DNA of 64,000 nucleotides from positions 1,550,001 through 1,614,000 of the forward strand of contig OZ374561.1 of assembly GCA_977862235.1 (NCBI GenBank), in the 5' to 3' direction. The notes beneath the pieces are model-generated. The model worked only from the letters and a program-made list of their open reading frames with translations, was not told where the DNA came from and searched no databases. The position numbers were made by a program, and so were the translations under genes. Each line of letters opens with the position of its first letter. The first letter of the stretch is position 1. This DNA is from Dudresnaya verticillata. Taxonomy: Eukaryota. This document shows, piece after piece, positions 1 to 44,167 of the stretch.

Positions 1-2
1 AG

Positions 3-16
3 TTTCCCCCGCCCTT
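3..16 (-). other. Polypurine tract of E1
   Basis: Minus strand reads AAGGGCGGGGGAAA followed by CT at the window edge, the position expected just before the 3' LTR. Confidence 0.6.
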
Positions 17-293
17 GGCGTAGGAACATTTTCCCGTCGAAGATGTGTCGTGACTAACTTCGCCAGTGGCGTGCGTCAAACCCCATCATTGACGTCGCAT
101 CTGCGCACGCGTGTGTACGCTTATCGCCTAGGGCGTTGCTTTAAGGTCCGCCTTCGGCGTCGTTCAGTCTAGCGTCGTTGACGTGTGTTGTGTGTGCTTC
201 CGCCTTTGGCGTAGTTGACTCGACTTTGAAGTCCCAGAACCGTCATTGACGCATCGTGTGAGCTCCGCCAGTGGCGTGTGATTACTCAACTTC

Positions 294-2510
294 TTGGACG
301 TAATGGCACAGTTCAATGGCCTACGAGTGGCTGCGCCTTCGGCGGCGCCGGTGTATCCGTCACCATTCGACTTTGTCGGGAGGACTCCTCGCAACGATGC
401 GCGCTTCTTCTCGCGGGCCCCCTGGTTCGACCAGGAGGCCCTGCGACATGAGGATCTCATCACCCATTACGCTGTGAGCGGGTTTTTGCCAGGGGAGTTG
501 CCCCTGGCCGTCGTGTGGACGAACGAATGGCGCCATCGGTGCGCCATTCCGAGGGGCTGGCTGCGTATTGCCGCCGGCCAGACGCGTGCAGATGCACATG
601 CCCGTTTCGTCGTTGACGTTTATCGGCGGTTTACCCGCTATCCTGGGTCGGTATTGACGCCCACCGTCTTTGAATTTGACGCAGGGCAGTACCGCACAAA
701 TGGCGAGGTTGGGTATGGGGACCGTCTTGGAGCGTTGTCATTAAGCCATGTGGCTGTTTCGGCTGAGCCGCGGGTGCTTCAGGAGGCTAACCTCCTCGGT
801 GTACGCTTGAAAGCGGATTTCCGGTACTTGCATAGGACGGGCACCTTCTATTGGGAGCGCTGCGTCCGTTGGGAGTGCGAAACGCGCCGCCGCAAAGGCG
901 TTTTTGTACCGTATCAAGATACGCAAGTTGATCGCATTGAGCGGGAAAAGTTGCCGCATTGCTTCATTCGCGTCCCGCCGTTGTGGCGGGACTTTGAAGT
1001 CTGCGAGGGCTTTGCGGCTGAATTGCCTCCGTGTGTCACGTATATTGGCTCCGAGTTGCGGACGGACCCGTACTCCCGATGTTGGATCGTGTTTTCCACC
1101 GAGTGGGTTGTCAACGTAACTTACGCATGGATGTGGGAGGTGTATGACACCTTCCGGCTCTATTATGTGCCGCCACGCGTAGTCAGCCTCCTTGGCGGGC
1201 TTGACTTGACCGAAGTGCTGGGCGGTGCCAGGAACTGCCAAGAGTTCTGGGATCTACGCCATGTGGCGGATAAAGTCAACTGGGACGACCCGGCAGCTGT
1301 GCCGCCGGGAAACCGGCGCCGTAAGGCAAACCGTCCGCATTACGCGATGAGTAGGAATCATTCCGCCTGTGGCGATTGGGTATGGTACAACCCTTGGACA
1401 AAACGTCTTATGACGGAGAATATCGCTGAGAGCCACCGTCGTACGGACCGCTTCACGCCAGCGAATCACCCACGTGGATTGCGCAAGAATTGCGACTTTG
1501 CGGGGGATTTCCCACCCCACTTGAGCGCCTTGATGGCGGAGGAGGATGCGTTCCACGCGAACAGCAGGCCGGTTAGCCCGTCTGGGACGGACATCGTTAC
1601 ACCTATGGCGGTTGAGCTTTCTGCGGGAGCGACAGCCCCCGCGACGATTTCGCCAGCGGCGGTAGCACCGTCGGCTGTTGTGCCTGTTGGCTTGCCGTCG
1701 GTTGCGCCGTTGGATCTCTCGGCGCCCTTCAACGACGGTGATGGTGATGCCATCATGGCTGCGCCCGTGGCGAGTCCTGCGCCTGTAGTTACGCCTCAAA
1801 GCGGAGTGTCTAACGTCGCTGACGGTGCGCATCGCCCTTCTGCAGTGCCCGAATGGACTGAGGAGCAGCGCCGCACGGTGCTCGCATTCTTGCGAGCCAC
1901 CGGTGTCGTCACTGACGGGCCGGGCGGGTCCTCCACGACACCCCTCGGGCACTCGCTGTTGGCTGCCCTGCAGCCCAGCGTTGCTGCGGTGCCGGCGTCG
2001 ACCGTCGTTGCGAATGTGCCGTCTAACGACGAAGGTGCGGCGTCTAATGACGGAGTGGCGAAAAAGCCTTTGCCGCCTAAGGCGGGTTCGTCCGCCATTG
2101 CGTCCACTGACGTTGTTAACAAAAGTCCGCCGAAGGCGAGTGCGGTGGCAGCGCCTACGGCGGTTCCGTAGGCTCCAGTGGCCTCTTCGTCGCTGACGGA
2201 TGTTGGTCGTTCAACGCCTTTGGCGGTTAATGCGGTCCCGTCACCGGAGGTGCCGGGGCCGTCGACTTCGCCCAAGGCGGTTGAGGATGCTCCGTCGCCA
2301 AAGGTGATCGAGCTTCCTGGTGTAGCGCCTAAGGCGGATAATGACTCTAACGTTGCGCCTATGGCGGTTGACGAGCAGTCGTCGCCTAAGGCGGATTGTG
2401 AGGCAGGTGCGTCGCCAGCGGCGGATGTCGCGACTTCGACAGCAGTGGTTGTGGCGGGTCCCTTGCGGTCCGTTCCTGCCCCTGCTGCGAGCGCACCGTC
2501 TGTGACGTAA
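294..2510 (+). CDS. Antisense accessory ORF of E1; unknown Trp/Tyr-rich domain plus Ala/Pro/Ser tail; one in-frame TAG at 2169-2171
   Basis: 625-aa ORF continues in frame into 2178..2510; aligns by eye with the antisense ORFs of E2 and E3. Confidence 0.8.
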
Positions 2511-8549: not shown

Positions 8550-11107
8550 TTAGTTTTTCGCCTGCGGCGGTTGTAGCGGCACTGCGTAGCGATTGATCAC
8601 CTTCGGATGACGTTCTGCTGCGTGCGGCATAGGTCCGCCTCGTGGCGACGGTGGTCGTGCTGCACGGCGTGCTGCTTCACGCGCAGCGCGTTCCTTGTAC
8701 CGAGTGTACGCGTCGGCGGGTACCCCCGCCCTCTCGGCGTCTGTTAAGCCTTCGTAGTTGGCGATCGCTTTCATATACTCGCTCATGCGGAGGAAGCAGT
8801 CCGGTTCGATGTGGCCACGGGCATAACACTGATGACAGACCAACTGTCTGCGAGCGTCTTGACGGGGCGGACCCCTGTCTTGCCAACCTGGCCTCGCCCG
8901 ATGGACGTGGGGGGCATACTCCGAGTACGGGACGCGTGGCGCGGGCACCACGGAACGCCCAAAGGCGAGCGTAGGATCCATCGCCTCTGTGTCCCCGTCT
9001 TCGACGTAGCTGTCCGTAGGTAACCCTGGCGTTGGCACTGATGCTTGTTCATTGGCCAAGTAGAGATCGCCATCGGCGTGTGTTTCCATATCGTCCGCAT
9101 GACGGGTGACATCACGGAACTCAACGGAGGACTCCGCTATCATAGCGCGTGCGGCAGGCTTCGTGCCCCTCGTCTGTTGACGTAGAACCGTTCGGTTGTC
9201 GCCAATGGCGGGGCGCGATGCGCGAGCGGCTTGTGCCGGGCCAATATATCCCGTCTTACTGACGTCGAACCGGCCCTGCCGTGTCTTGCGCGTTGCGCGT
9301 CGCCTTCGTCCTGGGCGAAGTGGACTAAACGTTCAAAAGATAACTCCGCCCTCGGCGTTTCTTCGCGGAAGCGGGCCACTAAGGACCTGATCGTCGGGTC
9401 TAACCCATCGATGAACAGTGTCATCTTTTCCCATTCGGGATAAACGTTACCGCAACGAATACATGCGCCGGCGAGTCTCATGCCGTAAGTCGTCTCGTCT
9501 TCGCCCTGCTTCTGACTAGTCGACCGCAGGGCGAGGACAGCGTCTCGAATCGCCGAAGGCGTGGCGTATGTGCGGAGTAGATAGTGCACCGCCTCCGGGT
9601 ATGATGATACGCCTCCACGGTGACGAGAGGACGTCGATTTGACGGAGCGGAATTGCGTCGCTGCCATACCTCTTAAGAAGTACGGCAGCGCGATGAACGC
9701 TTGTGCTTCGCTCATCTCTAGCGTGTCCGCCTCATCCGCGAACCGCGTTAAGAATTCGAAGACCATCACGGGGTCGCTGCCGTTGAAGGCGGCGTCCTTC
9801 GTCGTTAACTCGAGTCGCTTGATATGGTCTTTGACCTTCCCGGTTTCGCGTCCAGAGCGCTTCTGTCCCACGTCTTGGAGACGGTATGTGCGGTACGACA
9901 GCAGCTGGTCGAAGAGGGGATTGGAGGGGCTTAGCTCCTTCAGTCCCTTGTATCGCTTTCCGCGGGGTCGCATAGCACTGCCGTGAGCCACGTTGTCGCC
10001 ATCGTCTGACGACGAAGAGTGTGTTGACCCACCGTCACTAGACGTGTCTGAAGAGGATGAGGATGAGTCCCCTCGTCGGCGACGGTTCTTCTTTCGTCCA
10101 TGACGCGACTTGCGGCGTTTCTTGCCTCGTCTCATGCGATCTTTGCGTCGTTGACGGTCTTCTTCGGAACTGTCGTCATCGGACGGCGGACCTTGGCGCC
10201 ATTTGGCGGTTTCCAGTCGCTATAAGCGGGTTGCCAATCGTTGAAAACGTTCGCGTGAACTCAGTTCCGACTGGGAGTGGACCGTTAACGGCGCTTGCTG
10301 CGGGGAATCTACCCCGTAGTTGGGGTTCGTCATCAGACGGCCGAGGTCGGAACGGAGTCCTTGAAGGGCGCCGTCCCGATCTTCTTCCAACGTCTGTAGA
10401 CGGCTGAAAATACCTCCGACATTGTCGTCGAGCATTTCCGCGAATCGGGCGAGTAAGTTATCGTCTTCGACGACGCATACTTCCCGAATCCGCTCGCGAG
10501 GTATCGTGAGATTACCAACGCGGGCGGATGCTGGGGACGCCATTGGCGGTGTGTGCGCGGGGGTTGACGCCTGCGGCGGACCTCCCGCGCTGCGCGGTTG
10601 CGCTAACGGCCTGGCCGGTGAATATCCGGCACTGCCGTGGGGTGAAGGGCAGCAGCCCCTTGGGATTGGTGATTCGTCTACGACGTCGCGCCCCGCAGGG
10701 CGTCCCTGGTCGTCGTTGACGGGTAAGGTTGGTTGGTGAACCGGAACTTCCGGTTGTTCCTCGACGATGTCGGCTTGGGCTCCGTCCTCGATGGGTCGCT
10801 GTTCGGCTTGTACCGTGTCAGCGGAATCCACATGCGAGTGGTAAGTTCGGAGGGCCGATTCGTTGGGCACGGTGGTGCGAATAACGACGGGTACCGGCAG
10901 GGGAGGTACTCCTCCCCTGTTGAGCGATATGTGGGATTGGTCGTGTCCCAGACCGGTCGGGAAGGCCGATGCGATCTCTGGGCTCACGAGGCGCCCAGAA
11001 CTCGTTGTCATCCGCTGTAGCGACCGCTCCGACGCGGGAGCACTCCCCGGCGTCGATGACGGTCTTCTTGAACTGGGGCCTCGCGACGGCGGCGGTCGTG
11101 AGGCCAT
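8550..11107 (-). pseudogene. gag: gag of E1 (in-frame stop at 10220, frameshift near 9150-9200)
   Basis: Capsid-like FNGSDPVMVFEFL..Q..E segment; zinc knuckle CHQCYARGHIEPDC; ORFs 10220..11107 and 9140..10135 share a frame. Confidence 0.9.
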
Positions 11108-11215
11108 GATGCAGTCGTAGAGTTGCTTGAACGTCGTGGACGATTAGCGACGAACGTCTAGAGACGGAAGGTCGGACGTCGCACGACGGAGTAACTCGTT
11201 GAAACGTAGCACACT

Positions 11216-11232
11216 TCTAGGTCGAGAGACCA
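11216..11232 (-). other. Primer binding site of E1
   Basis: TGGTCTCTCGACCTAGA, 2 nt inside the LTR end; near-identical to the PBS of E2-E4. Confidence 0.9.
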
Positions 11233-11234
11233 GT

Positions 11235-12146
11235 TGTAGTGCAAACGTCGATGACGAAACACCGCCGAGCAGTTCGGGGCTCGGTGGGTAGCGACGCCTG
11301 CGGCGATGAATGGCCTCGCCGTGGGCGTCTGGTGGTAGAGCGGTTGACTCGCCTTGGGCGGACTGTAAACGCCCTTGGCGGAAAAGAAGAACAAAAGAAA
11401 ACAGAAAGGGAACACGTCGAGGACGGGTAGAGACGTGGAAGCACGGAGGTAGACGCTTAGCCGTAGGCAGCGGTAGGGTACGCGCGTACTGAACGGGGAA
11501 GTCTGGACCAAGGCCGGCTTGTCGGGGTTTACTGTGTCGTCAGAGACGGATCAACTAAGTATAGAATTACCTAGCGGCGGCGACGCGGATGCACGCGTCA
11601 CGCGGGAACTCGGGACACGTGTTGTCCCGAGGCGCGTCTGACAGATCCGTCCGTCATGCAGCCGCGCTCCTGACAGATCACGCGTAGCTTCCCTGCGCGA
11701 GTCCTTACACCTACACGTGGACTACTTCCTTACAGCCGCGTGCGCCTCATGGCGCGTGCGATCTTGATTCACGCCAATCCCGATCCAGTCCGGATTCGGG
11801 CCAGCGATGCGGATGCGCCAGGCTTACAGGCGCGTGTCTTACACCCCTTAGTCCCGATGTGGGATCCCGATGTGGGATCCCGATCGGATCCGGATTCGGG
11901 CCACGCTTACAGCGAACATTCCCGCCACTGCGCCATGCGCGTACACGTGGCGCCGTACAGTGGCCGGGTTCAGGCGTGCGGTCTGCACGCCCAGCGAGCC
12001 GTTCTGGCCCGAGTGGCCAGCGGCATGCGTCGGTGACGTGTTTGCGCCGCGCGCGGGTTGAGCGCGCCGTTGGCGGTCGTCCGTCGGTAGACGCTGAATA
12101 TCAACCCGCTTGAAAGCGAAAACGGGGGACCCCCCCTGGCACTACA
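11235..12146 (-). repeat. 5' LTR of E1 (912 bp)
   Basis: Perfect terminal inverted octamer TGTAGTGC...GCACTACA; abuts PBS; internal GGATCC-like 6-bp array; homologous to the solo LTR. Confidence 0.9.
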
Positions 12147-12306: not shown

Positions 12307-12653
12307 TGTAGTGCCAGGGGTGGGCCTGTACTTTTCACTCTGAGCGTGCCGACGGAAAAGAGCCTCCGGCGTCCCAATCGCCGTTGGCGCTCGAACACGT
12401 CATTGACGACTGGCCCTCCGCCGTACGGACGCTGCAACCTCACGCTGGTGAGCATCGGACCCCGGGTACTGTACGCCCGGCGTGCCACAGATCCGGATTG
12501 TACACCGAGATCAACGGGGTATAACGCGCGGGTATGTGAGCCTGGCCGGGATCCGGATCGGATCAGGATCGTACATCGAGATCAATCATCGGGATCCACC
12601 GTAATGTAAGGCGCACGCCTGTAATGGCCCGCGCCTGCAACGCAGGCACCGAT
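12307..12653 (+). repeat. Family-1 solo LTR, 5' part
   Basis: Starts TGTAGTGCCAGGGG like the E1 LTR; preceded by GTCGG (12302-12306). Confidence 0.88.
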
Positions 12654-13552
12654 AACAACAATTTCGCCGGCTACAGAATTTCCAAAACAGAACAGAATTT
12701 TTTGAGGGTCCTTGAATCCCGGCGTTTGATAGCGCGTTGGAAAGGGGGCGCTACCCTGAGAGTAGTGGTGCAAACAGATCGGAGCAAACGCAAATAGTTT
12801 CGGAGTTATGCGCTCCGGCATATGGGCCTCCCCCGGGGTCGAAAGTTCCCGAAAGTTGTGATTTTTCCGAAAAGTTCCCATTAAAAATTCTCCAGAAATT
12901 GATTCTGGCCCGTCCCGCCGCCCGCGCCCCCGCCCCCCGACCGCACACCGCATTCTGGCGACTTCCCGCCGCATTCCGACGCGCTCGGACTTGGCTTCCC
13001 ACCGCATTCCGACGCGCGCTCGGCCACCTCCCCCCGTCCGACAGCCACTCCCACCATCACCCTTCCTGGTGCTGCTACTGGCCCACGCATTCCGCATTCT
13101 GGCGCGTGCACACGCGCTCTGCTTCTGCGTTGCGCGTAATGAGGCGCGCTTCCCCACCCGGGTGGGGCCCCTCCCAGACCCGTAGTGCCGCTCCCCGCCC
13201 CAGTCCTGCCTGTGACCGCACTCTGTCTCACGCTCCCTGCCGTTCACCGACACCTCGCCGTCACCCTTCCCCGCGCTCCTGCGTACCGCGCCCGGCCGCA
13301 TTCTGACACCTCCACATCAAGTTGGCGCATTCGGGCGCATGGTCAGCCCCGCCCAGCAGTCCCCCGACACGACTCCCTCACCCCTACCCCGCTCTCGAGC
13401 GGCACGGTCACCCGCATTCTGACCTGTCCTCACAACTGGGCCCACTACCCGTCCGACCTGGTACACTACCAGGTAGCTAAGCCACTTGCGCACCCGCGGT
13501 TCGGACTCAACTTGTGGCGTAGACTGACGCTACAGGCGTCGATTTCCCTTGC
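12654..13552 (+). repeat. Left TIR (~900 bp) with reiterated CGCATTC motifs
   Basis: 12654..12956 is the reverse complement of 31704..32006; 12951..13552 is the reverse complement of 25327..26035. Confidence 0.93.
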
Positions 13553-13729
13553 GGTTCTGCACAACGGCCTGACCCCATTGCATTCTGTTGTCTGCGCCGC
13601 GTTTATTGCGCCGCAGCTGAGGACCATGCCATACTTCAGTGGGGCACATCCCCGATTGTAGGCCGCCAAATGGACTGAATCGCATTGCTGTGCTCATGGG
13701 AGAAGGCCACCACTTTACTATCTCTAAAG

Positions 13730-14670
13730 TTAGCAATCGCTGCTATCATGCTTGCGCATATACAGCCCTTCACAACTAGACAGTTCATTGTTCAGGCTCC
13801 TCATGATGCACATCCTCACCTCCGGTTTCATTGCGCGGCTGTTGGACATGTATAATTTTGTGCAAAGCAGATGTGTGTAGCGGTCCAGTTGATACGCGTT
13901 CTCTCCGCCCCTGTGCAGCGTTTCGACGATCGCGAAGTCTATAGCATGGGCTGCACCGTGTACGTACTTGCCCCTTCCCACGAGAAGGATTGTCTTCAGC
14001 AACAACCTGTACAACTTTTCCAAAGCTTTCTGATGGTGGGAATGCTCCATCATCGTCTTGTCTGCGTAAAATTGCTGTGATGATTCCCAAGCCATTTGGG
14101 CACGATCCAGGTCATTGTGGTTGTCCAGAATGTCGTCGTCACTGCTAGGGCTTTGGTGCGTCCATTTTCGTGCCTCACGATTAAGATCTTCCTCCATCCG
14201 ACGTTTAACGGCGCTGTATAGCTATTACACATCCAGAATCAAGTAATCCATGGTCTCAATACAGCGGTATTCTGGTCACAGCATATTATGGTGGTGAACG
14301 AACACTTCGTTTCATCTCAGCTCTCTTTCCGAAATGGCCGAGGCCTTTAACTGCGATAGGATCACTGCGTGCCCGGACAATACATGGTCCATCTTTCCAC
14401 GAGCTCACGGGTGTCCATTTCATATGCGTTGGAGATAGCCCTGGGCGCACTCCGGTACGTAGTTGATCAATCACTTACTGCCAATATGCCGCAACGTTGC
14501 CAACAACTGCAGCAGTACGGCACATGTGCCACACTCGCGACAGCCTTCCGTGACAGATTCTGTTTGGTGGACCAAATATAACCCCCGCGTTCATAGTACG
14601 GCACGTGGAAGCACTGGCGTTATTCGAGTAAATGGTGCCTGAAAGACGTCGAATTCATGGACCATGGCGG
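13730..14670 (-). pseudogene. Disrupted ORF of unknown function directly downstream of the MTase
   Basis: Collinear minus-strand ORF pieces (14286..14474, 13730..14197) with protein-like composition; no family recognised. Confidence 0.4.
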
Positions 14671-14759
14671 AAGCAAGACGCAAAGACATGTTCAGAATAC
14701 GGATGCTCGAGAAATGTTCAATTCGGCCTATGACAATAGTACTGTAGTGACTATAATTC

Positions 14760-17747
14760 CTAACCAATCTTCTTCATGTTGTGCAAGTCCCACGAGAACA
14801 ACAAGCCGTTTAGGCCCTTGAGATTGGCAGGAGGGTCCTCTACTCCCTTGAATATATACGGATACGAACTTAGCTCATACTCCGCCATGACCTTCAAACT
14901 GTAGACGACCACAAGATGCTCCCCTGGGTTGGCAGATTCTGACAGATCGTGGCCGTGCAAGCGTTCATTCCAGTTCCCTCCTGGAGTCTTTTCAGGATGC
15001 AACACGGCCTCCCCCACTTCCTTATCATTTGCAAGAAGCGTGACTCTGTCTCCGGCCTTGGGCATTGCACAAGGTTCAGGTGTTTTCCTTCTCCTGCACT
15101 TTTCATTCTGCTCCACACTTCCTACAACTATGTCTTCACTCCTGCCGTGCTTCTCGATACTCTCTTCGGGGTCATCCAATACGTGCTCGGACGGTGTTGT
15201 GAGATGGGACATTTCAGGTCCCTTCTTCGTTACGGAATGGTTTGTTGGTTGAGCAGAATCTGTTTTGACAACACTACCTCTTGCTGCCTCACCGATACCA
15301 TTCAGTTCGTCATGAGCACTTGATTCCAAACGTTTACGACCTGTCTTCATTTTATATGCTTCCGTGGCAAGCCTACGCAAACGTTCAGCCCCCAGCTTGA
15401 ATGTTTCGACCTGTAATTCGATTAGTGTACACCGACGATCTGTTCTGAGAGCTGCAATCCCAGTCGTCATGGTTCCGCTGTGCATATCCAGAACTGACCC
15501 ACCCTCCGGGCAGAATGTTGTCATTATCTCCACAAGTACTTCGGGAGACTTCTCTTCGACCAGAACTGGGGACTTGGTGCCTGGGCGTAGCAACTTGTGT
15601 TTCGGTGTTGGTAGAGAGGACATGCACGCGAATTTCCGCTTTTCTGGGGAGGGGATGCAGTGATACTCGCTCCTAAGGTCGAGCGAGAACCCTCCGCCAT
15701 GCTGACCTAGGGCACGCGCCATGACGGCTATTTCCACACAGTTCTGGGGCATATCGCTCCCCCGATGTTCCTGCATGGTCTTGGGGTCTTTGGAGAATAC
15801 GAATGGGTATGCTGGACACATGAATTGTGCCTTCTTCAGAGCATCGTGGAATACACTGAAGTTCAGGAATGACGTGAAAACAAACAACCACCCCCCTGCT
15901 ACAAGTACGCGCCTCGAGAACTCAACTATCTTCTTAATGTCTTCCTCGCTGAGGTAATTATCGAATGAACTCCCCGACTTAGACTGCGATTTCGGTGTAC
16001 CGTATGGTGGATCTGTGAGGATTAAATCGAATCTTTTGTCACCTTCCTTCATTACGGTACTGTCGTAGCTCTGCCATGTCATCTGAAAGCATGTCAGTTT
16101 CATTTCCGCAAGATAATCTATTGGAACAGAAAGCGATCCGTCCTCCACCGGCACAGGATTAGTACCCATGTTGAGGCGAACAGACTGCTTTGATGACACA
16201 GTTGATATAGTGGGGTCTGTGGGACTCTTTTCCGGTACAGAATGCTCTTTGGCTGCACATGCAGCTGTAGGGTCTGCGTTCTGGACGGGTGCCTGTCCAG
16301 ATTCTGCTGGTTCGCGAACTTCTTCCCTTTTCGAATTGGTTGATGTTACTAAGCACAAAACCTCGTCGTCGTTAGAGATTACGGTAGCGTCCACCTGCGG
16401 TGACAACGTGCAGTCCAAATTCTGTTGACCGTCAGAATCTTTTGCTCCACATGCATTCGAACCCAGGCGGGTCATGACAGCGTCATCACGTCTGCCTTCT
16501 GTCGAATCCATCACAGTTTGCAGATCTTTGTACTTCTGCAACTTCACTGGGGTCTCTTCCGTACAACACTCTCTGTACATCTCAACTATTGTTTTCAACA
16601 GTGTACGGTCATTACCTCGATTCATGATGACCTCGACGTCCAGCTTCGTAGTGTGTAACAGGTTTTCTCTTAATGTACTCATGCCTGACGGCCATTCTGT
16701 CCTCTCCCTCATCGCTTCAAATTTCCGAGTCTCGGAAAGGGCGGCTGAAGCTTTCACGAATTGCTCTTGTGTGTGTCTGGCCGAAACAGGTTTGAAATTG
16801 TGTGTCCTTGACACCTCTCGAAGCCTGTACAGGGTAGCTATTTGAACAGTAATGCCTTTGTCAGAGCTGCCTGCATTCATAAAGGCCTTGGAAGACTTGA
16901 TGGAACTGACGTGAATGAAGCGTCTGTATACTCTGCAATCCAGATTCTGCATCGCAACGTTTGAGTCTATGGCCTTTCCGGAAGCAGTCAACAGTTGCAT
17001 AGTTGCTAGTTCAGGGACCTCCTCCTTCATTATCTTCCCAATTACATCGATAACGCGACGGTCAAGAAGAAGAACGGTTGCCGCTGTCTGTTTGATAGCG
17101 TTTTCCGATAGGTGACTGCATCCATCGTATGCTTCGGCAACTGCCGTCGCAGTCGGAATCTTCCCATTACTGGCTTCGAGACGGTCTGCCTCTTTCCTCA
17201 GACCGCATATCTGATCGTAAAACGTGGTCTCTACAAAAAGGCTGGAGTCGTGCTTTCTGTTCTGATGACGAGCCAGTTGCTTCAGAATCTGGATGTTGTG
17301 CCCCCCTTTAAGCACAGTGGCAGTCAAAGCAAACCCCTTCCATGTCTCCCGGTCTTCATCGATTAGCTCCATAATGGCGATAAGTCGATGCATGCCATCA
17401 ACCACTCCGAACCACTCCGACCGACTGGAGGCCTCTTCTTTCACCTGTTTCTTTGTGTACTCTGTCCCATCCGCATTCCGTTTAGCTCGTAGAAACTCAA
17501 AAATGAAACTCCTGAAGGGACCTGTTAGGCGAGCCAGTACGGGCGCATCAGAACCGGCAATGTACCCGTTGTTGTAGTTAGCGCTCCTCGTCCCACCACC
17601 CCTGAAAATCTTATTGAGCCTCTCAACACCGGATCTCGAGTCCCTTATATCAGTCATCGGAACACAGGACCTGGGGTCTATTCGAATGTTGGTAGACCCC
17701 TCCATGACATCTCCAAATAGTGCCTGTGCCATCTCCTCCTTCCTCAA
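14760..17747 (-). CDS. ParB/Srx-like domain fused to a beta-class N6-adenine/N4-cytosine DNA methyltransferase plus a C-terminal domain shared with the transposase
   Basis: VVDGMHRLIA (ParB-like, ~17385-17400); FDLILTDPPYG motif IV (DPPY at 16002-16013); RVLVAGG; EK.PEVL; SAM-binding motif I GGSVLDMHSGTMTTGIAA (~15470-15500); IEL. The IV-before-I order defines the beta class. Confidence 0.9.
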   Translation of the reverse strand: MRKEEMAQALFGDVMEGSTNIRIDPRSCVPMTDIRDSRSGVERLNKIFRGGGTRSANYNNGYIAGSDAPVLARLTGPFRSFIFEFLRAKRNADGTEYTKKQVKEEASSRSEWFGVVDGMHRLIAIMELIDEDRETWKGFALTATVLKGGHNIQILKQLARHQNRKHDSSLFVETTFYDQICGLRKEADRLEASNGKIPTATAVAEAYDGCSHLSENAIKQTAATVLLLDRRVIDVIGKIMKEEVPELATMQLLTASGKAIDSNVAMQNLDCRVYRRFIHVSSIKSSKAFMNAGSSDKGITVQIATLYRLREVSRTHNFKPVSARHTQEQFVKASAALSETRKFEAMRERTEWPSGMSTLRENLLHTTKLDVEVIMNRGNDRTLLKTIVEMYRECCTEETPVKLQKYKDLQTVMDSTEGRRDDAVMTRLGSNACGAKDSDGQQNLDCTLSPQVDATVISNDDEVLCLVTSTNSKREEVREPAESGQAPVQNADPTAACAAKEHSVPEKSPTDPTISTVSSKQSVRLNMGTNPVPVEDGSLSVPIDYLAEMKLTCFQMTWQSYDSTVMKEGDKRFDLILTDPPYGTPKSQSKSGSSFDNYLSEEDIKKIVEFSRRVLVAGGWLFVFTSFLNFSVFHDALKKAQFMCPAYPFVFSKDPKTMQEHRGSDMPQNCVEIAVMARALGQHGGGFSLDLRSEYHCIPSPEKRKFACMSSLPTPKHKLLRPGTKSPVLVEEKSPEVLVEIMTTFCPEGGSVLDMHSGTMTTGIAALRTDRRCTLIELQVETFKLGAERLRRLATEAYKMKTGRKRLESSAHDELNGIGEAARGSVVKTDSAQPTNHSVTKKGPEMSHLTTPSEHVLDDPEESIEKHGRSEDIVVGSVEQNEKCRRRKTPEPCAMPKAGDRVTLLANDKEVGEAVLHPEKTPGGNWNERLHGHDLSESANPGEHLVVVYSLKVMAEYELSSYPYIFKGVEDPPANLKGLNGLLFSWDLHNMKKIG

Positions 17748-17749
17748 GG

Positions 17750-18710
17750 GCTCACTTGACCCCCTGCTCCGCTTCTTGCGCTTCGAAATGGTGTGCGAGA
17801 GAAAGAGTCACTGTGCACGTGAAAACCGCTCTCCTTGAAAGAGTACGGAAAGGGGTACTGCATGTCCGACGAGTTGTCCAGATTCTGTTCAGAAAACCTT
17901 CCGCAAGAAATTCTTTACGTCCCCGGCTCATGTTTGCACGGTGCAGTTTTCGACTGACACCATACGGGCTTTCGACACACTGGACGGCGGCAGTACGACA
18001 TGGATGTGCCGCAAATTCCGAGATGGCACGGGAGGTCACGTGGATTGTTCACCGGGTGTGGGCAGTCTCCATCAGAACTATCCTTAGCACAGGCCGTACA
18101 GTTGGAATTGGTAGGATGCAGGTTTCAGCGGACCTGCAGGGCGAGATGTAACAAAGTCAATTAGGGCATGCTGCTCGCTGTCCCAGCCGACTTGGCCGGA
18201 CTTTGAAGTTGAGGCCGGCCTGGCCAGGTGCTGATACTGCGAGTAAAATAGCATGCCACACACGGTTTCGGTGAGTACTGGCACACCGTTGCCAGCGGCG
18301 TGCCAGCGGGGGGCGCGGCGGTCAATTTACGAGGAACAGGTTCTCGGGGGTGGGAGGTGTCAACACCTGTGCGTGCAATATCCGTATCAGGGAACAGGTG
18401 GGGCGAGAGCGCCGGGCCAAATAGCTGTTCATTTGATGTGGCAAAATGCGCTCTGAAAAACCTGTATAGATTTTCTGTCCAATGATATTGAATAAGCTTG
18501 TAAAAGGGTCTTTCCATTGGGCCGCCGTCAACACCTTTACAGCTTCTGAATGCGGCCAAGTCACATTGCTATGAGAACAGATATTGCGCTTCACGGCAAC
18601 GGAGGAGCCCAAAGTGCAATATCAGTATCGGGGAACAGGTCCTGAGAGCCAGCAAACTCCACAATCTATCTGGCCTCGGCGCTGCTCCCGCTCCTGCTGC
18701 TGCTCATCTT
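17750..18710 (-). pseudogene. Probable disrupted N-terminal extension or upstream ORF of the MTase gene
   Basis: The MTase frame stays open upstream apart from a TGA near 17808; the peptide LFPDTDIA is encoded twice (~18375-18400 and ~18615-18640). Confidence 0.4.
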
Positions 18711-19314
18711 CCCGTTCCGCACGCACAACAACCTGCACCCGTCGCACCTGTGCCTAGTTCATCCGCAGTCCGCGCTGCGCTTCGTCTGCCGCGCCGCCGA
18801 CACCCTCACGTACCTTGCCGTGGCATCCGCCCGCCTGCAAGTCCCCCTCGACCACTTGCGCCGCTTCGCCGCCGTCCCAATCCCCGCTAACGTCCGCGTC
18901 GACACGCAGCTCCACCCTCGCTTCGCCGTCGAGGTCATCGCGCTGCACCACCCGCTGCACTTAGCCTCCCTCGCGCGCGTGGACCACTGCCAAGCCGCCG
19001 TTCAAGCGCTCAACGCCTTCCTGCACGAGTCCCGCGTAGACTCGCACAACCCACTGCCGCACCCGCCCGCCTCGCTCTTCGACCACGCCCCGGTCGACGC
19101 GCGCCAGCCTGACCATGCGCCCACGCTTGGCCTTGAAACAGGAGGCGAGCAATTTACTCCCATTGATGGCATGAACGAGGGCGAGGCGCTGTATGTCGCC
19201 CATGGGCGCCCTTTTGCCACGTGATTGAAAGAGCAGCATACTTCAAACATCTGCAGCCACCCCATCACTGCTGCCGCAATACAACATCTGCATCCTCGGG
19301 ATGTCTCTTCAGAT

Positions 19315-19566
19315 ACACGGGGTTGAATGTACGGACATGTCGAGATAATCTTCTGACCTTTATCCCGGGCAATGTCGCAAACGAAATGCACGAGCTTTCC
19401 TGCAATTCCTTGGCCACGCATGCGACTCTGGCACATATGTACTGTACATGTCGTAGGCAGTAACCCCATCAACATCTTTCAGAGGATAGCGAAGAACAGC
19501 CAGGTCATCCACCCCTTCAGGGGTGAGCGAAAAACGATTCTCTTCCGGTTCATGTCGAATCGCCAT
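19315..19566 (-). pseudogene. Captured GNAT acetyltransferase (YjdJ/NATD1-like), frameshifted
   Basis: MAIRHEPEENRF..YDMYSTYVPES / MRGQGIAGKLV..ARDKGQKIISTCPYI across two frames; RGQGIA acetyl-CoA motif and C-P-Y signature. Confidence 0.8.
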
Positions 19567-20399
19567 TGCCGCTGCAGGAGTAGCGCTCACCTTCAGGCTG
19601 CAGGCCCTATTCCAAAACCTCTTGCTTGATGATGGGAGCTTTGGGGGCCCTAACGAAGGATATCCTAGCGGAGATAAGGGCGATGGGTGGGAAAAGATCC
19701 TTTCAGCAACGTAGCTGTGCAGAGCAGATGAACGCTGACAAAGACCTTCTGCTGCTGTCGACCGCACTACCCCAGGCTAGGAGGGTACTTGTCGAGAAGA
19801 TGGAGGTCAGTAAAATGGTGAGTTGAAATACCCATGCATCGTGGGAAATGCAAGAGGTTGAGCCGCGGGTAGGCGCAACATACGCTCACCTTAAAATGCG
19901 AGACGAGAAACTGTAGCGGGATTCGCATAGTCTGGTAAAGTGGGGGACCCTCGCCGGCACCGTCGTTGCTCGTGCAACTGGGAAATCGCTTGTTGCTGCT
20001 GTGGACGCAAGTAAGGGTGAGCGTGAATGTTTTTGAGGTCCAGAACGCTCGACGGAGAAACTTCCGGAAGACTGATGTATCGCATCGAAACTCAACGATA
20101 AAAAACAGGACGACCTCGCCATCCGGATTTAATTTGTCGGGGCTATTAGATACACTGTTCATGTTCTGCTGTCCAGGACGGTGCAGGACCATAGTGCCAT
20201 AGCTTTTGTTTTTGCGCTGTGGTGCACGGTTCATGAACAAAACTAGCCCCTGTTTGTGACTTTTGCAGTGATCGTACCGACAGTCAAGGGATGCCACTTA
20301 CTTCGCTATCAATATGTAGCAAGTAATCGCTGTCGACTTGCCCTGTCTCCACACTCTTGATCCTTGTTACGCCTAACGCCAAGCGCAATAAGACGCCAG

Positions 20400-21480
20400 C
20401 GTTTTGCGTGGCACTCATTTCATGTAGCACAAGCCAACACTCCTTCTTCTCCCGGGGCCCAGATTTCGGCATCTGCTTGAGCTCGAGCTCAAGGAGATGC
20501 CGAAATACCAGGATCCTGGTAGTCAAGTTTTCCGTACTGCAATACAAGCCCCTGATGCGGCCTTTGTATTCTCAAGGCAGTTAAACGATATCCCAACAAG
20601 AGCTTCGACTCGGTTACCTTGAAATGCTTACCGCCGACTTCGTAAATCAATGCTGCTGCTGCCCGCAGGCAAGCATGAAATAAGTCTTCTGTATATGTGA
20701 CTAGTCCTGCATTTCGTGAGAGAACGCTGACAATTGTTTCCGACATTTCTCCTGCAACGGAAGCTTCGTTGGGAAGGGTAAGTTTCAGGAGCTTTTGCAC
20801 GTTGTTGACTGCATTCAGAGTTAAGGAATCCTGGGATATTCTCAGCGATTGGACAACCATAGGCAAAAAGGGCTCTACCATTGCTTGTAACTCACGTGAT
20901 TCTGTACCAGAGCCCATTACGACGTCCATGATCTTGCTGATCGTGCTTCCCAACAACAGCATACCAAAACTGATCATTCGGTGCCTATTAGCTACAGTGT
21001 TTCTCAGTTCGTCCTCTTCACCACGCGAATCAGAAATGGCGGTAATGAGCTCCTTCCCCTTCGGCTTTGTGCCTTCGGTTAGAGATTGATGACTGACTGT
21101 GAATGCATCAGCTGAGAGCACAGAACTATTCGTAGAAAGCCCTCGAAGCAGTTTTTGTAAGACGATATCAAGCCGTGGTAAGAGCTTAGATGAAGATGTT
21201 TGCACCATCACTTCTTCGAATGGACATTCGATCAGCCCGGACTTATCACACTCACTGCGCCTGAATGAAATGTTGCGAGTCGGGCGATGCGTTTAACACA
21301 TTCATAAGCTCTCGATGCACGTGCCGAAGCCTCCCTCTGTCTTGAGCTGGAAACATTCGGGTCTTGAAAGTCATTGCCAATAACAGATACACCGCTTTCT
21401 AACTCTTCCATCAAGTTCGTTGTAATGCTAGGAACAAGTTCATCATTTGGATACACAGGCGCGGCAACATTCTCAGCTTC
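20400..21480 (-). pseudogene. Captured internal fragment of a HEAT-repeat protein resembling UTP20 (SSU processome)
   Basis: Blocks RGLSTN, NRHRMISFGMLLL, AMVEPFLPMVVQSL, LLKLTLP and DLFHACLR resemble my recollection of UTP20; frameshifted; no gene start or end. Confidence 0.6.
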
Positions 21481-22231
21481 TCTATTGCCGAATTCTTGAA
21501 CGCCAATGCGTGCCGTCCAGGATGAGCATGCTCACCCACGCACGGCAATCTGCAGACGACTCACACGGTTCGCAGTGCGGACGGCTGAGATGAGCTAGGC
21601 CCGTTCGGCTGATATGCGCCTGCCCATGATGCCCGCGCTCACGCCAGGCTTGGTAATGTGCGTCGTGAACCGGACGTTGTTGTCGAGGAGAGATACGAGC
21701 CCTGTTGTCTGCTTCGCCGATCCCAAAACCATCAGAGAGACTGAAACAACTGGAGCAGCAGCATTGCCATTCGTGCTGTGCGGCAACTTCCTTGGAAGCG
21801 TGTGAAAACGATATCAACTCGTGATGTCGGCGCTCTGCAGCCGCCAGGACACCCCAGGGTGACCGTCAGCTTTATGTGTCCGCCTCCCAGAAGCTGCAGC
21901 TTGTGTGGCTCCGCAGGCATGCGGAGAGTTGTCCTGAAATGTAATTGGCCAAGTGCAGAACCAGAATCTGATCACAAACAGAATCTGGGTTGCAGAATAA
22001 CCCAGATGCACCCCGTGCAGCCACTCGTGCCGCTCCACGGGTGTGAAGCCTCAAGAGCAGGCAACAGGCGGCGCGCCGCGGTATCACAGAGGGTATTTAA
22101 TGCGCACGCGTTTTGCTGCGAAGTGCTGCGCCTCCCCACCAGGTCGGCCAGGTGCCTTAACAGACTGCAAAGTGGGCGCTCTGCTTAGAGCGTGAAGGGA
22201 AGACAGAACGAGTGGCACTCTCACAAGCTGT

Positions 22232-25200
22232 GTGCAGATACCGTCGCGGAAGGACATTTTGAACGACATGGAAATGAGCCCGGCAACTACGGATTGTGCT
22301 GAGCGAGAAAATGAAGCAAAGAAAGGAGGAGGCAGCGCGCGCGACGAAGGGCGTGTTGCTCTTCTGTATGACAGGGAAATGGTCGGCACTGCTATTGTCA
22401 AGAGACCGGGGACAAAAGAGGACGCAGACCAGTCTGGCAGGTATTGTGTCAGCCTGCATGGCCACAAATTGTCTCCCAGTCAGAAAAAAGGGGAGAAGCT
22501 GGTTGTGGTTTACCGAGCACAAATCATCCAACCGTATGAGAAACTTCAGTACAAATACAAGTACAAGAGAACGGACTCAGTTCCGCACACACTTGGGGAG
22601 ATGGGTGGGGGTTTTCATGCATGGGATGTGAACTACATTCAGGAGCTCGGCAATCGAGAAATCGCGCCGTTGTGCCAGAGACGGGTGTACTCTCCACGAC
22701 AGGGCATAGTTCGTCGCAGAATTTACCCAATACTGAGCAATTGCCCCCCGACGTCAACTGCAGAAAACACTGCCGCAGCGGTGGTCCCTACCGCATCGCC
22801 CCAGCAGATGACACCAGTTGACACGACCAGGCTAATATCACCCCTCCAACAACGTGCGGGGCCGCAAGCGGATGCCGCAGCGCGGTCAATTCGAACAACA
22901 CCCCCGCCTGGCAATGCTCCGAGCAGTGAGGAAATGAGTGAACCGCGAGAGCATTTGAGGGAGGCCAGCCATGATGATGCGGACGCCGTACGACACGTGT
23001 CGGAAGGTGATGACAATGCGTATGACCCTTTTCAGAAGGTGCAGGTCAGGACAAAGCGAAAGTATACTTACAGGAAGAGAAAGCAGCAGACCTTCAGTGG
23101 GAGAGGAAGTCTTCAGAAGAGACGTAGGCACCTGTTCAAAGACCTGGAACGCGCAAACACGCAGTCAATGAGATGCTGCATCGGGAACAAGTGCTTCCAA
23201 AGTGTGGAGCAAGTGTACTTAAAGGCGGAGGCGCGCAGAATTGCCGGAATGAACGTAGAAGCAAGGCGAACGTATCTTCGCAATCTGTTGGACACGAGAA
23301 AGATGAAATACTTTTTCAACCACCAGCCTGTCTGTTGCAACTTTCTGGAGCAGGCCTTTGGATTCTCCCGTGACTTACAGACCTCTGTAAAAGGCACGAG
23401 GCAGGCCCGGAAGCTGCAGCTCCCAAACAATGCGAGGCGTGATACCTCATCCCATCAGCAGGATACTATCATTTGCTTCCTTGAACGTCTTGCAGACAGC
23501 ACTGCTGAACCAATGCCCGATAACGGGGAGTTACACCTCCCCTACTTTCAGAAATCAGTTGTGTATGACATATTCAAATTGGACCACACCAGGCTGTACA
23601 GAAACAGGGAAATTCCGTGACAGAGTTACTTTTACTTTGTATGGAAACACAGTTGCTCCCGCATTAAGGTGCGAAAGACACACCGATTTGCAAAGTGCAG
23701 CGAATGCGAACTCATTCGCGAGCGACTTGCTCAGGCAGGGACCTCTGGAGCAGGCACTGAACACCTGCATGAGCGGCGCAACATTCACTTGAAATTAATA
23801 CAGGCAGAGAGACGTGAATATCAGAAAAAATGTGAGAAGGCGATACTATTGCCACAAGAGTATTGCTCCCTCATAGTGGATGGTGCTGATCAGTCCGCAT
23901 TTGGACTTCCCCATTTTGTGTTGTCGTCCAAAGCCAGCATTGGGCATGCCATGAAAGCGAAACGTATTGGGGTGCTTGAAAACAGGGCTGAGAAGCGTCT
24001 GCACTTGTACACAATGACCGGTGAGTTCGAGACCGGCGCGAACCACATTATCGAGGCGTTGCACAGAACGCTTTCGGACAAAATAGTCCAGAGGAGAGCT
24101 ACAAGGGACTTTATTTCTACAAGTAGACAACTGTTCGAGAGAGAACAAAAATACCTTTTTGTTCTCATACCTGGAGAGTCTCGTTGCATGGGGTGTGTTC
24201 CAAGAGGTCTTCGTGTCTTTCCTGCCCGTCGGGCACACTCACACAGATATAGATCAGGCCTTTTCGTGCACGGCACGCCGGCTTAAAGTTCGGGACGCAG
24301 TCACAATGACTGATTTGATGGAAGAGCTTCGGCAGTCGTACAGTCCAGAACCAGTTGTCAGTCGCATGCTTCAAATTACGAATTTCTCAGGCCTGTGTCG
24401 ACAGGAAGGATGCATTGGTAATGTTGAGGCATTCACGACCTATCGCTATTTCAGATTCCACCGTGTGGGTCCAGCTGCGACGGAAGAGGCAGAATCTGTT
24501 GCAGCTTTCGTGACAGGCTGTCAATTGAGAATGACATGCGCGGATGACTGGGTCCCGTTGCAGACAGGAGGAGAGCATAAGGGGTTCATACTATCCCCTC
24601 CTGACCTTGGAAAGACTCCAGCAACAGTGGTCAAATCGCCGCCAGATTTGAAGGAAGTCAACGACAGGTTTCGTTCTGAAGAGACACGTGTGAATGACAC
24701 GGGAAAGAAGAGGGAGCTGCAGGAATTGCGGGACCACGTGTACAGAGATAGGCTGGAAACGTTTCATTGGGATATGGGACGCATATTTGAGACAAGGGGA
24801 AAGTAGAGCGGAAGAGTGGCGCTGGAGTACGTACCGGAAGGGGATGACGGTGAGGAGGAGACTGTGACCCCCTCTTCAGACCTGCAGTACACGAAGAACT
24901 GCTTCGTTGCCGTTGTGAGGGAGAACGCCACCGCACGATGCCCATTTTGGATTGGACAGATTCTAGACGTTGTGCAGGACGCTACGGGAAAGGCTACTGA
25001 GCTGTATATAGGATGGTACGAGGCGTATGACTGTAAGGGTGCTTGGGACGGAAAGTACAAGGCATCCATATACTCAGCGACTAAGCGCTTGGGACGGAAA
25101 GTACAAGGCATCCATATACTCAGCGACTAAGCAGCCATGGACTGGTACTGTCGGCGTCGCGACCGTAATGGTCGAATTCGAAGCTCTTACGAAGAGACGT

Positions 25201-25266
25201 CTACCGCAGCTCGTCCAGAAGAGAATCAGAGAATCGCCGTTGTTAGTTAGGTATGCCGGCTCTTGA
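22232..25266 (+). pseudogene. DDD-type transposase (Sola-like / DUF7869-type), ~1000 aa when repaired
   Basis: KCSEC..H..H zinc motif; IVDGADQ; LFLQVDNCSRENKN; FLPVGHTHTDIDQAFS. Stops at 23618 and 24804; frameshifts near 24085 and 25087. C-terminal FWIGQI..LYIGWY domain. Confidence 0.82.
25041..25132 (+). repeat. Exact 46-bp tandem duplication that frameshifts the transposase C-terminus
   Basis: GCTTGGGACGGAAAGTACAAGGCATCCATATACTCAGCGACTAAGC twice. Confidence 0.95.
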
Positions 25267-25326
25267 TACGAGAAACAGCTACAACCAGTAAATTATACTC
25301 TCAAATTGATGCAGCACACGATAAAT

Positions 25327-26035
25327 GCAAGGCCATTCGACGCCTGTAGCGCCCGTCTACGCCACAAGCTAATTCTGAACCGCGGGTGCGCAAACGGCTT
25401 AGCTACCTGGTAGTGTACCAGGTCGGACGGGTAGTGGGCCCAGTTATGAGGACGGGTCAGAATGCGGGTGTCCGTGCCGCACGGGAGCGGGGTAGGGGTG
25501 AGGGAGGCGTGTCGGGGGACTGCTGGGCGGGTCTGAACATGCGTCAGAATGCGGGCACTTGACGAGGACGTGTCAGAATGCGGCCGGGGGCGGTGCCCAG
25601 GACTGCGGGGAAGGGTGAGGGAGGCGTGTCGGGGGACTGCTGGGAAGGGCTGACCATGCGCCCGAATGCGCCAACTTGATGTGGAGGTGTCAGAATGCGG
25701 CCGGGCGCGGTGCGCAGGAGCGCGGGGAAGGGTGACGGCGAGGTGTCGGTGAACGGCAGGGAGCGTAAGACAGAGTGCGGTCACAGGCAGGACTGGGGCG
25801 GGGAGCGGCACTACGGGTCTGGGAGGGGGTGGGGAAGCGCGCCTCATTACGCACAAGGCAGAAGAAGAGCGCGTGTGCACGCGCCAGAATGCGGAATGCG
25901 TGGGCCAGTAGCAGCACCAGGAAGGGTGATGGTGGGAGTGGCTGTCGGACGGGGGGAGGTGTCCGAGCGCGCGTCGGAATGCGGTGGGAAGCCAAGTCCG
26001 AGCGCGTCGGAATGCGGCGGGAAGTCGCCAGAATG
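25327..26035 (-). repeat. Right TIR, inner part (with an extra internal sub-repeat)
   Basis: Reverse complement of 12951..13552. Confidence 0.92.
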
Positions 26036-26675
26036 TATTTTCCGTGGGCCTTTGCAACTTTTTTTGCAACTCCCCCTGCGCACCACTGGGGCCAATGTCA
26101 CGCTGATTGCAACTCCGTCAGAAAGACTCGAATGACTGGCTCAATTGTCACGCAACCACAGGGCGGAAGGCGTGCCGTGTCGCACAGCTGTGCTACTGTA
26201 CTATACTGTACAGTAGTACTGTGTACTCTCGCGCCGTCCCGGACTGCCATAAATTCGGCTTCTGGCCCGTATATAACCCGTGCTAACATTTCAGACAATT
26301 GAAACAATTGAAAACAATCATACTAATAATGGCGAGCTGATCTGTGCTAGCACGCTTCTTTACAATCACTGCTGTAATAAATGAGTCCATCTCTCTAATG
26401 ACATATTCATATTGTACTGGAAGACTGTTTCGATGGCGCTGTAGAGCTGTGCCTCGCAACCACAGTCATTACTTCGCGCGAAGTCACAGTGGGTGTGACC
26501 GCAACTCAGTTGGACGTCATTCAGATTAAACAAGCAAGGTCTGAGTGCCGGCGACAATTTGCTCTGAGAAATACCCTCGTCCGCCTGCTTCTTCAGCTCT
26601 CTTCCACACTCGTACATTGCTGGATGCGCGCTCGGCGCGACTAGACGCTCATAAGATGCAGACACACAGACGTTA

Positions 26676-27830
26676 GTGTCACAGTCAGAGTCGCCAATCC
26701 ATCTAACATTGTTGCACCAGCAAGGTCAACCTTGCTTGAGGGCAAAGGCATTGTCAAGACCTCCTCGCGCCCCGTTCCTCCCCTCTTTTGCGCCAACAAT
26801 GCTGGCTATCTCTGATGCATCTCAACTGTCCACAGAGCCTCCGAATGAATCGTTTTCGAGAGGTGGGGCATCACCACGCCTAAGTCAATTCTTTTCCTCT
26901 TTTGAAACGGCCCAAACTTTCTCTCAGCTCTGCACGAACAATGGGCGTGGTCAGCGTGCAATCATTGAAACCGCTGCACTGCTCAATCAAGTTTGGGGCT
27001 CCCGTGACCCGAATAACCCGGAACTGTGCTTCGATAATCATGATGGAAGACAGGGGACAGCCATTTACAGACCCCCTCGACGGATGGCTGGGGGTGTCGT
27101 TTTCCCGTGCTCTCTCGTTACCTCTGAAGGACTACCACCGCAGACAGTCACTATTGTAAACCACAATGTTACAATCAGCGCCTCTGCTCGGGTGATAACT
27201 GAAGCTGCTTTAGCAAGTACAAGAAAGTATATGGAAGAAACTCCGAAGGCAGGAAGCCATGAGTCTGGAAGAAACCATAAGAAGCGGCAGCTGACATTCA
27301 AGTCAAACAGAGGGACCAACGTTTCAATGCAGAAGAACCGCAACAAGAAAGGAAGATTTGAAAGGAAGCAACTGGTACTTCAAAATCAGTCTCGTGGGGT
27401 CGCGCCATCCATTCCGCTTCACACACGTGATCTTCGTACATTGCTGAGGCAATGGGTTGTTGGGGATCCCGAAAGGGGTCTACCTATACCGCTTGCAGAT
27501 TTTTCGTTGGCTCAAAGAAACGGGAAGGATGCATCCGGAAAAATTGTTAAGCCCCTGTATAGTAGGAGACGGGTTGTTGCGCTTGCGACACTCTTAGCGC
27601 TACAAGATGCCAAAGAGAATGGGAAGCCATTTGCCCAATCCATTGGCGTCAATCTAATCGAGCTTAAAAGGCCGAACTTGGAGCAAATTAGAATGTCGCA
27701 GTGGGAGGTTTTATGCAAGAAGTATTTACAGAGAGCGTCCAGGAAGCTCTCCGACGCTGAGATTATTTCTTTAGGGAAGAAAATGTACTGTAGTGATGTT
27801 TTAGATTTGCTGCCGGATTGCGGCAGTTAG
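26676..27830 (+). CDS. 384-aa ORF with a possible GCR1_C-like DNA-binding domain
   Basis: RDLRTLLRQWVVGDPERGLPIPLADF...LYSRRRVV resembles the W..G....P..L...YSRR pattern of GCR1_C. Confidence 0.5.
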   Translation: MSQSESPIHLTLLHQQGQPCLRAKALSRPPRAPFLPSFAPTMLAISDASQLSTEPPNESFSRGGASPRLSQFFSSFETAQTFSQLCTNNGRGQRAIIETAALLNQVWGSRDPNNPELCFDNHDGRQGTAIYRPPRRMAGGVVFPCSLVTSEGLPPQTVTIVNHNVTISASARVITEAALASTRKYMEETPKAGSHESGRNHKKRQLTFKSNRGTNVSMQKNRNKKGRFERKQLVLQNQSRGVAPSIPLHTRDLRTLLRQWVVGDPERGLPIPLADFSLAQRNGKDASGKIVKPLYSRRRVVALATLLALQDAKENGKPFAQSIGVNLIELKRPNLEQIRMSQWEVLCKKYLQRASRKLSDAEIISLGKKMYCSDVLDLLPDCGS

Positions 27831-31703: not shown

Positions 31704-32006
31704 AGAATGCGGTGTGCGGTCGGGGGGCGGGGGCGCGGGCGGCGGGACGGGGCAGAATCAATTTCTGGAGAATTTTTAATTGGGACTTTTCGGAAAAATC
31801 ACAACTTTCGGGAACTTTCGACCCCGGGGGAGGCCCATATGCCGGAGCGCATAACTCCGAAACTATTTGCGTTTGCTCCGATCTGTTTGCACCACTATTC
31901 TCAGGGTAGCGCCCCCTTTCCAACGCGCTATCGAACGCCGGGATTCAAGGGCCCTCAAAAAATTCTGTTCTGTTTTGGAAATTCTGTAGCCGCCGAAATT
32001 AGTGTT
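31704..32006 (-). repeat. Right TIR, outer part
   Basis: Reverse complement of 12654..12956. Confidence 0.93.
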
Positions 32007-32010
32007 GGAT

Positions 32011-44150: not shown

Positions 44151-44167
44151 TCTACGTCGGGAGACCA
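44151..44167 (-). other. Primer binding site of E2
   Basis: TGGTCTCCCGACGTAGA next to the LTR end ACTACA. Confidence 0.9.

Follow-up and report, generated by a model that had tools for sequence, protein, structure and literature searches.

In three Gypsy retrotransposons of a probably red-algal window, by which we mean the whole 64,000-nucleotide stretch of DNA that was analysed, the stretch from pol to the 3' end of the element holds a third gene, antisense to pol. That this antisense gene is real and selected is almost certain. The position it occupies was already known from other LTR retrotransposons, while the protein family it encodes was previously uncharacterised and, judging by a predicted model, has a candidate new fold. 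We tentatively propose that the protein works in trans in the nucleus, either switching on the element that encodes it or guarding that element against host silencing, a role we regard as possible but short of probable.

Transposons are nested throughout the window, and no host gene was recognised in it. The Gypsy elements E1, E2 and E3 each encode a protease, reverse transcriptase (RT), RNase H and an integrase with a C-terminal chromodomain; the RTs show pairwise identities of 52–59%, and one type of primer-binding site is common to these three and to a further element, E4. A preliminary description had reported an antisense frame beyond pol, ahead of the 3' end, in each of the three elements, and this was borne out. 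It had also given the frames as ORFs at 294..2510, 33076..35192 and 54233..55420. All three copies turned out to carry stops or frameshifts, and the E3 gene is far longer, extending over 53592-56982. The features of E1, E2 and the solo LTR between them are as follows.

2..17, minus strand: polypurine-tract-like run of E1, from the sequence; the 3' LTR of E1 lies beyond the window's left edge
303..2510, plus strand: E1 antisense accessory gene, with ATG at 303, an in-frame stop at 2169-2171 and the frame end at 2510
333..1502, plus strand: conserved core domain of E1, residues 11-400; AlphaFold2 pLDDT 94.9, 44% helix
3799..8676, minus strand: E1 pol (protease, RT, RNase H, integrase, chromodomain), 1,625 codons open
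8550..11143, minus strand: E1 gag, in three pieces
11221..11233, minus strand: E1 primer-binding site, of the type seen in E2, E3 and E4
11235..12146, minus strand: E1 5' LTR, with inverted termini TGTAGTGC...GCACTACA
12307-12648 plus 32014-32723, plus strand: solo LTR related to the LTR of E1, with target duplication GTCGG, located in the 3' region of E2
33076..35192, plus strand: E2 antisense accessory gene, with a frameshift near 33690; the core runs until about 34200
36596..43721, minus strand: E2 gag-pol, decayed, with a stop within the chromodomain
44156..44680, minus strand: E2 primer-binding site (44156-44168) and the visible portion of the E2 5' LTR

No LTR copy that would represent the 3' LTR of E1 was found within the window. 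The 3' LTR of E2 is also absent from it, because the solo LTR and probably E1 inserted into the 3' region of E2, a nesting order that we infer. The solo LTR (12307..32723) is interrupted by a 19-kb DNA transposon. Two other readings of the locus were ruled out: a single 2.1-kb palindrome as the LTR of E1, and an E2 ORF that belongs, in sense, to the LTR at 32723. That LTR is a solo copy flanked by a target duplication of its own. E4 is a fourth Gypsy fragment (57987-60782, plus strand), whose gag is 78% identical to that of E2. E4 and E2 stand head to head, with E3 inserted between their 5' LTRs, and E1 and its related solo LTR also stand head to head, with 160 bp between them. These two pairs hint at insertion near related LTRs.

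The DNA transposon itself (12649-32013) has inverted ends of about 300 bp that are 97% identical, and it is enriched in the words GAATGCGG and AGAATCTG. It carries a 1,015-codon gene for an N4/N6 DNA methyltransferase (14760-17807, minus strand; Pfam N6_N4_Mtase, E=1e-10), as well as a broken, putative transposase at 22196-24286. Similar methyltransferase genes are reported from giant algal transposons (PMC12477816). A second long inverted-repeat pair within the transposon (12951-13552 and 25327-26035), containing 117-bp tandem units, is perhaps a nested element.

E3 is a complete element on the plus strand, and its antisense protein consists, in order, of a K/A/P/S-rich N-terminus, the core, a coiled coil and a P-rich tail.

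44681..45444, plus strand: E3 5' LTR, with target duplication CATCT and 98.3% identity to its 3' counterpart
45782..52683, plus strand: E3 gag-pol, decayed, with a C-terminal chromodomain
53592..56982, minus strand: E3 antisense gene of about 1,130 codons, from ATG at 56982 to the stop at 53592, with one stop and two frameshifts
54620..54925, minus strand: stretch of 92-100 residues of the E3 core over which the family profile aligns
57217..57980, plus strand: E3 3' LTR, with a purine tract just before it

The Pfam Chromo domain was found at the integrase C-terminus of E1 (E=2e-8) and of E3 (E=9e-5, where the curated cut-off was not reached). The chromodomain of E2 has a stop inside it, yet it aligns to that of E3 with a score of 56 versus a shuffle maximum of 39. 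The name 'chromovirus' for E1–E3 derives from the chromodomain only and must be considered a provisional label, because chromodomain-bearing Gypsy lineages outside the chromoviruses exist (PMC12477816).

The antisense proteins of E1 and E2 are homologous, as had been claimed: their alignment score is 145, whereas 1,000 shuffles had a mean of 37.8 and a maximum of 75. The proposed alignment of all three proteins stood for this pair only. E3 does not align significantly in pairwise comparison (z=3.0 against E1 and 0.5 against E2), and its similarity emerges only against profiles. The short motifs by which the three had been joined mainly reflect the sequence of E1. VP.LWR.F and LPP.V.Y.G match E1 alone as written; W..F..EW holds for E1 and E2 but not for E3, and R(L/M)(Y/W)(Y/W)..P for E1 and E3 but not for E2. 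GDWV is indeed common to E1 and E2, and both also match VR(W/F)E..G.FVP, provided that the spacer is set to seven residues. Rather than a short block of motifs, the conserved part is a domain of about 370 residues (about 20-392 in E1), and the tails flanking it are P/A/S-rich by composition, in agreement with the disorder ascribed to them.

On the strength of profile comparisons, the E3 antisense gene is probably a distant member of the E1/E2 family. A seven-sequence profile built without E3 scored it at 11.1 bits, a value reached by none of 2,000 shuffles (E=0.019 among 1,645 frames). With a 124-sequence profile, whose members were gathered with an E3-containing profile so that the E3 score is slightly circular, E3 had E=0.056 and was the next rank after 12 frames above the inclusion line. 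By hhalign, P was 4.1e-4, with a probability of 35% over 92 columns. If the match were a chance resemblance of aromatic-rich segments, the E3 gene would be unrelated and the finding would concern two elements. We regard this as rather unlikely, although it would agree with the absence of any BLASTP match to E3 at E<0.01 among 155 family proteins, with an alignment that covers only about 95 of the 370 core residues at that hhalign probability, and with a coiled coil present in E3 and in no E1/E2 family protein. Against chance, the three profile tests concern one ORF chosen in advance and give P from 1e-5 to 4e-4; P225, W228, G236, Y247, W261, E267 and R285 (E1 numbering) are in register in E3; and the E3 gene has the same slot and strand as those of E1 and E2.

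The antisense gene also occurs beyond the window. An integrase query of metagenome contigs gave 191 pattern matches, from which 36 loci were confirmed, and in five of these (L003, L012, L014, L016 and L022) the core domain lies antisense to and downstream of the integrase. In 13 of the 36 loci, which include all five carriers, the sequence continues for 1.4 kb or more past the integrase match. Since the core can lie up to 3 kb from the integrase, the eight misses among those 13 say little. On a FastTree phylogeny of the lineage's integrases, rooted at the midpoint and with several nodes weak, the carriers are distributed across the tree. One of them, L003, is a complete metagenome element, with gag, pol with a chromodomain, purine tract, LTR and primer-binding site, and its antisense frame is unbroken over 782 codons and matches E1 at E=2e-31.

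Several other loci hold frames of less certain kinship. L013:3-761 (minus strand) matches the N-terminal part of the core weakly (E=0.003) and lies upstream of gag; it possibly belongs to a neighbour or is a differently placed copy. L010:866-1504, L007:1272-1772 and L008:1416-1904 (all minus strand) are antisense frames downstream of the integrase with no match to the core profile, and the L010 frame ends in a coiled-coil-like stretch followed by a basic tail, resembling the C-terminal part of E3.

A profile search of 1.84 billion representatives returned at least 320 clusters (50% identity) at E<=1e-3, and 124 at 1e-10. All of the 155 family proteins, known as protein sequences alone, match a profile built without E3. 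None of the 155 resembles gag or pol, which indicates that the antisense ORF is a separate gene. Names were present on three of 24 family proteins looked up, in each case 'unnamed protein product' of the red alga Agarophyton chilense, which makes a red-algal host of the window probable. Only profiles succeeded in finding relatives. Homolog searches seeded by words gave no match, whether they started from E1 alone or, for longer proteins, from an alignment of three rows, nor did an antisense-protein query against metagenomes or an integrase query against viral contigs. No description of the antisense protein family appeared in the literature that was searched, and the gene may already be annotated elsewhere, for example in Repbase, as 'ORF3'.

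Selection on the gene could be read from the antisense frames of L012 and L016, which differ at 53/170, 43/169 and 81/168 sites of codon positions one, two and three, respectively (Fisher p=1.3e-5). The excess at third positions indicates purifying selection in that single pair. The earlier idea that the third gene is ancient, under selection and unlike recognised types is thus upheld by 320 clusters with a median identity of 30%, by the third-position excess and by the lack of a match in Pfam, PDB or BFVD.

Pairwise identity has this median of 30% over the roughly 370 residues of the core, and a set of positions is nearly invariant (E1 numbering): P40, W41, W76, D126, R131, E135, Y138, E191, R195, E232, Y247 and W261. 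Position 192 is R in 94% of relatives. The AlphaFold2 model of the core, made from 114 sequences, is mostly helical (44% helix) and has a pLDDT of 94.9 and a pTM of 0.92; a prediction from only three sequences had a pLDDT of 32. The comparison with Pfam and structure libraries that the preliminary description had called for was run, and no known domain or fold matched. The Pfam cut-off was reached by 0 of 68 proteins, and no family appeared in more than two of 88 members at E<=10; a weak match to MBD (1/88) and matches to E3_binding (2/88) were regarded as chance. Transposase_28 (TRP28) in particular was found neither in the 88 members at E<=10 nor in the 68 proteins at E<=0.05. The best hit in a PDB sequence search had E=0.66, and Foldseek gave nothing at E<=0.001 in PDB and BFVD. 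With VIA-align the highest Z to any of 48,161 chains was 2.5, whereas models without a match typically reach 7-8. Neither E1 nor P0006 had a usable match in the ESM Atlas, and six family sequences had none in PHROGs. The predicted core is therefore a candidate for a new fold, of which an absent structural match is no proof.

The net charge of the core has a median of +1 and ranges from -20 to +9 in 54 members. Hydrophobic, membrane-type segments occur in three of the 54, and neither a hydrophobic N-terminus nor a signal peptide in any. With its antisense rather than sense orientation, the protein is, as far as sequence features tell, soluble and not env-like. His, Cys and Lys form no conserved column in the core, and no metal-binding signature was found in the family protein. 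NLS-like motifs are present in eight of 54 members, compared with 3.4+/-1.6 (maximum 9) after shuffling. A, P, S and G abound in the tails. A two-helix motif of about 35 residues recurs in 28 of 59 C-terminal tails (for example P0015, P0050, P0104 and P0111); it is also present in L003 (residues 749-779) and is not significant in E1. This motif, which may resemble HeH/SAP motifs, is possibly an oligomerisation or HeH/SAP-like module.

A second signal lies in the DNA of E3 itself.

44681..57980 (whole E3), no strand: enrichment of TGGCCA / YGGCCR, 87 and 177 sites

The other 50.7 kb of the window contain 13 TGGCCA and 53 YGGCCR sites. In E3 the sites are spread over LTRs, spacers and genes. Its coding regions have 50 TGGCCA sites, in all three frames, versus 13.2+/-3.1 in synonymous shuffles (maximum 22 of 1,000), which rules out an effect of codon usage. 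CpG deamination is no explanation either, because the GGCC core itself is enriched five-fold and RGGCCY is not. The motif inside coding regions is a strong, unexplained sign of selection on the DNA sequence. The top hexamer of E1 gag-pol, GACGGT, has 19 occurrences versus 8.2 there and nine versus 2.5 in the E1 antisense gene (z=4.7 each), and both values are within the null maximum. In E2, L002, L003, L004 and L013 no hexamer loading beyond the null was seen. Motif loading above the null maximum therefore occurred in one of seven elements tested, namely E3, whose protein diverges most.

An anti-silencing or DNA-binding factor, as suggested in the preliminary description, is plausible; it is pointed to only by motif loading in E3 and, weakly, in E1, by precedent, and by weak NLS-like signals. 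In the process we propose, transcription of the antisense gene would start at a promoter within or next to the 3' LTR; in E1, E3 and L003 the start codon is about 200-300 nt from the LTR. The core of about 370 residues would fold, the tails would be disordered, and about half of the members would add the two-helix C-terminal motif. The protein would then recognise the DNA or chromatin of its own element, in the E3 lineage plausibly via YGGCCR sites across the whole element, in the manner of VANC proteins, and as a nuclear factor it would activate that element or protect it against silencing. The gene, its conservation and its lack of env features are observed directly; its transcription and the protein's nuclear localisation and binding we infer from layout and precedent. 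That the protein acts on its own element's DNA or chromatin is possible, at a likelihood somewhat below even. Unlikely, in our estimate, is a stronger form: a sequence-specific anti-silencing or self-activating protein of new fold in red-algal LTR retrotransposons, whose families have been recoded genome-wide, coding regions included, for its site (YGGCCR in E3), in a VANC-like arms race of independent origin.

Against a DNA-binding protein, the modelled core matches no DNA-binding fold among known structures, its charge is near zero, the NLS-like motifs are weak, and motif loading above the null maximum is confined to E3, the most doubtful family member, where the sites are dispersed and largely coding. 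The invariant D, R, E, Y and W residues would also fit a catalytic or ligand pocket equally well. The core may thus instead be a new-fold enzyme or small-ligand domain directed at components of host defence or at nucleic acids, perhaps to add or remove a mark, that recognises no DNA sequence. Such an activity is favoured by a cluster in which D, R, E, Y and W are nearly invariant although members are just 24-39% identical, by the compactness and size of the predicted domain (pTM 0.92) and by the capture of enzymes by other retrotransposons, such as DAM methyltransferases (bioRxiv 10.64898/2026.05.21.726589). However, there is neither similarity to an enzyme fold nor a conserved His, Cys or Lys column, and the paired R and E residues may be mere buried salt bridges. 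We consider this reading fairly unlikely. An equal, low likelihood applies to an accessory of the life cycle similar to retroviral Rev or Vpr, which would bind the element's RNA, the Gag particle or the integration complex and serve packaging, nuclear entry or targeting, the E3 motif then having another cause. An Arg- and aromatic-rich core (10% Arg) suits RNA binding, retention over deep branches suggests a core role in the life cycle, and PMC7264820 proposes such a role for antisense ORFs in general. A separate antisense transcript, however, provides no stoichiometric tie to Gag, and the motif in E3 coding regions is left unexplained.

Finally, the protein could be made for cell-to-cell spread, or for host benefit or manipulation (a movement factor, drive or addiction module), and not for regulation of the element. 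Extra ORFs of some retroelements serve spread, and the high diversity of the family is as expected in host conflict. This is nevertheless very unlikely: the counts of signal peptides and membrane segments given above (0/54 and 3/54), the antisense orientation and the lack of a partner gene in the cassette all stand against it. We retain, tentatively, the nuclear factor directed at its own element.

For decades LTR retrotransposons have been known to carry antisense accessory ORFs, with no function attached so far. A large alignable family, a confident model, invariant residues, the intact L003 element and a candidate motif now make function testable. By its model, the protein also appears to represent an uncharacterised fold within repeat-masked seaweed DNA.

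Several known systems resemble the one described here. The HTLV-1 gene HBZ is antisense, is driven from the 3' LTR side and has a regulatory role, as cited in PMC11963269 and PMC7264820; the analogy is one of layout only, with no sequence or structural likeness found. DAM-LTR and EpiLTR elements (bioRxiv 10.64898/2026.05.21.726589) carry epigenetic enzymes on retrotransposons, one clade being in a red alga. Like ours, they are Gypsy elements that bear a chromodomain and have an additional function, possibly directed at chromatin; their products are recognisable methyltransferases, whereas the family protein here matches no methyltransferase profile or fold. The VANC proteins of Arabidopsis VANDAL elements bind short motifs amassed in their own transposon (PMC5735166). 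The likeness to them lies in an accessory protein encoded by the transposon, with a conserved core and variable regions, and in a short motif of the cognate element in E3. VANDALs are, by contrast, DNA transposons, and the VANC motifs are described in that paper as 8-9 bp long, tandem and non-coding, while the E3 motif is a dispersed 6-bp palindrome that is largely coding. A motif in the cognate element is strong in E3, weak in E1 and absent from the five other elements.

The closest layout is that of the antisense ORFs between pol and the 3' LTR (aORF-3R), which PMC7264820 and PMC11963269 list for maize Grande (gene23), rice RIRE2, Silene Retand (TRP28), PvRetro13 and Botrytis Boty. GENE23 of Grande is nuclear and has its own antisense promoter (PMC7264820), and TRP28 is predicted to bind DNA (PMC11963269). 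The E1/E2 family differs in having no TRP28 or other Pfam domain and in its core of about 370 residues without a fold match; Retand elements are non-chromoviral, whereas the elements here have a chromodomain and a probable red-algal host. Position, antisense orientation, retention across families and a long region from pol to LTR are shared. The position is seen with both LTR and purine tract in E3 and L003, and with the purine tract at the window's edge in E1, and conservation extends over five of 36 related loci and 320 protein clusters, with a third-position excess at p=1.3e-5.
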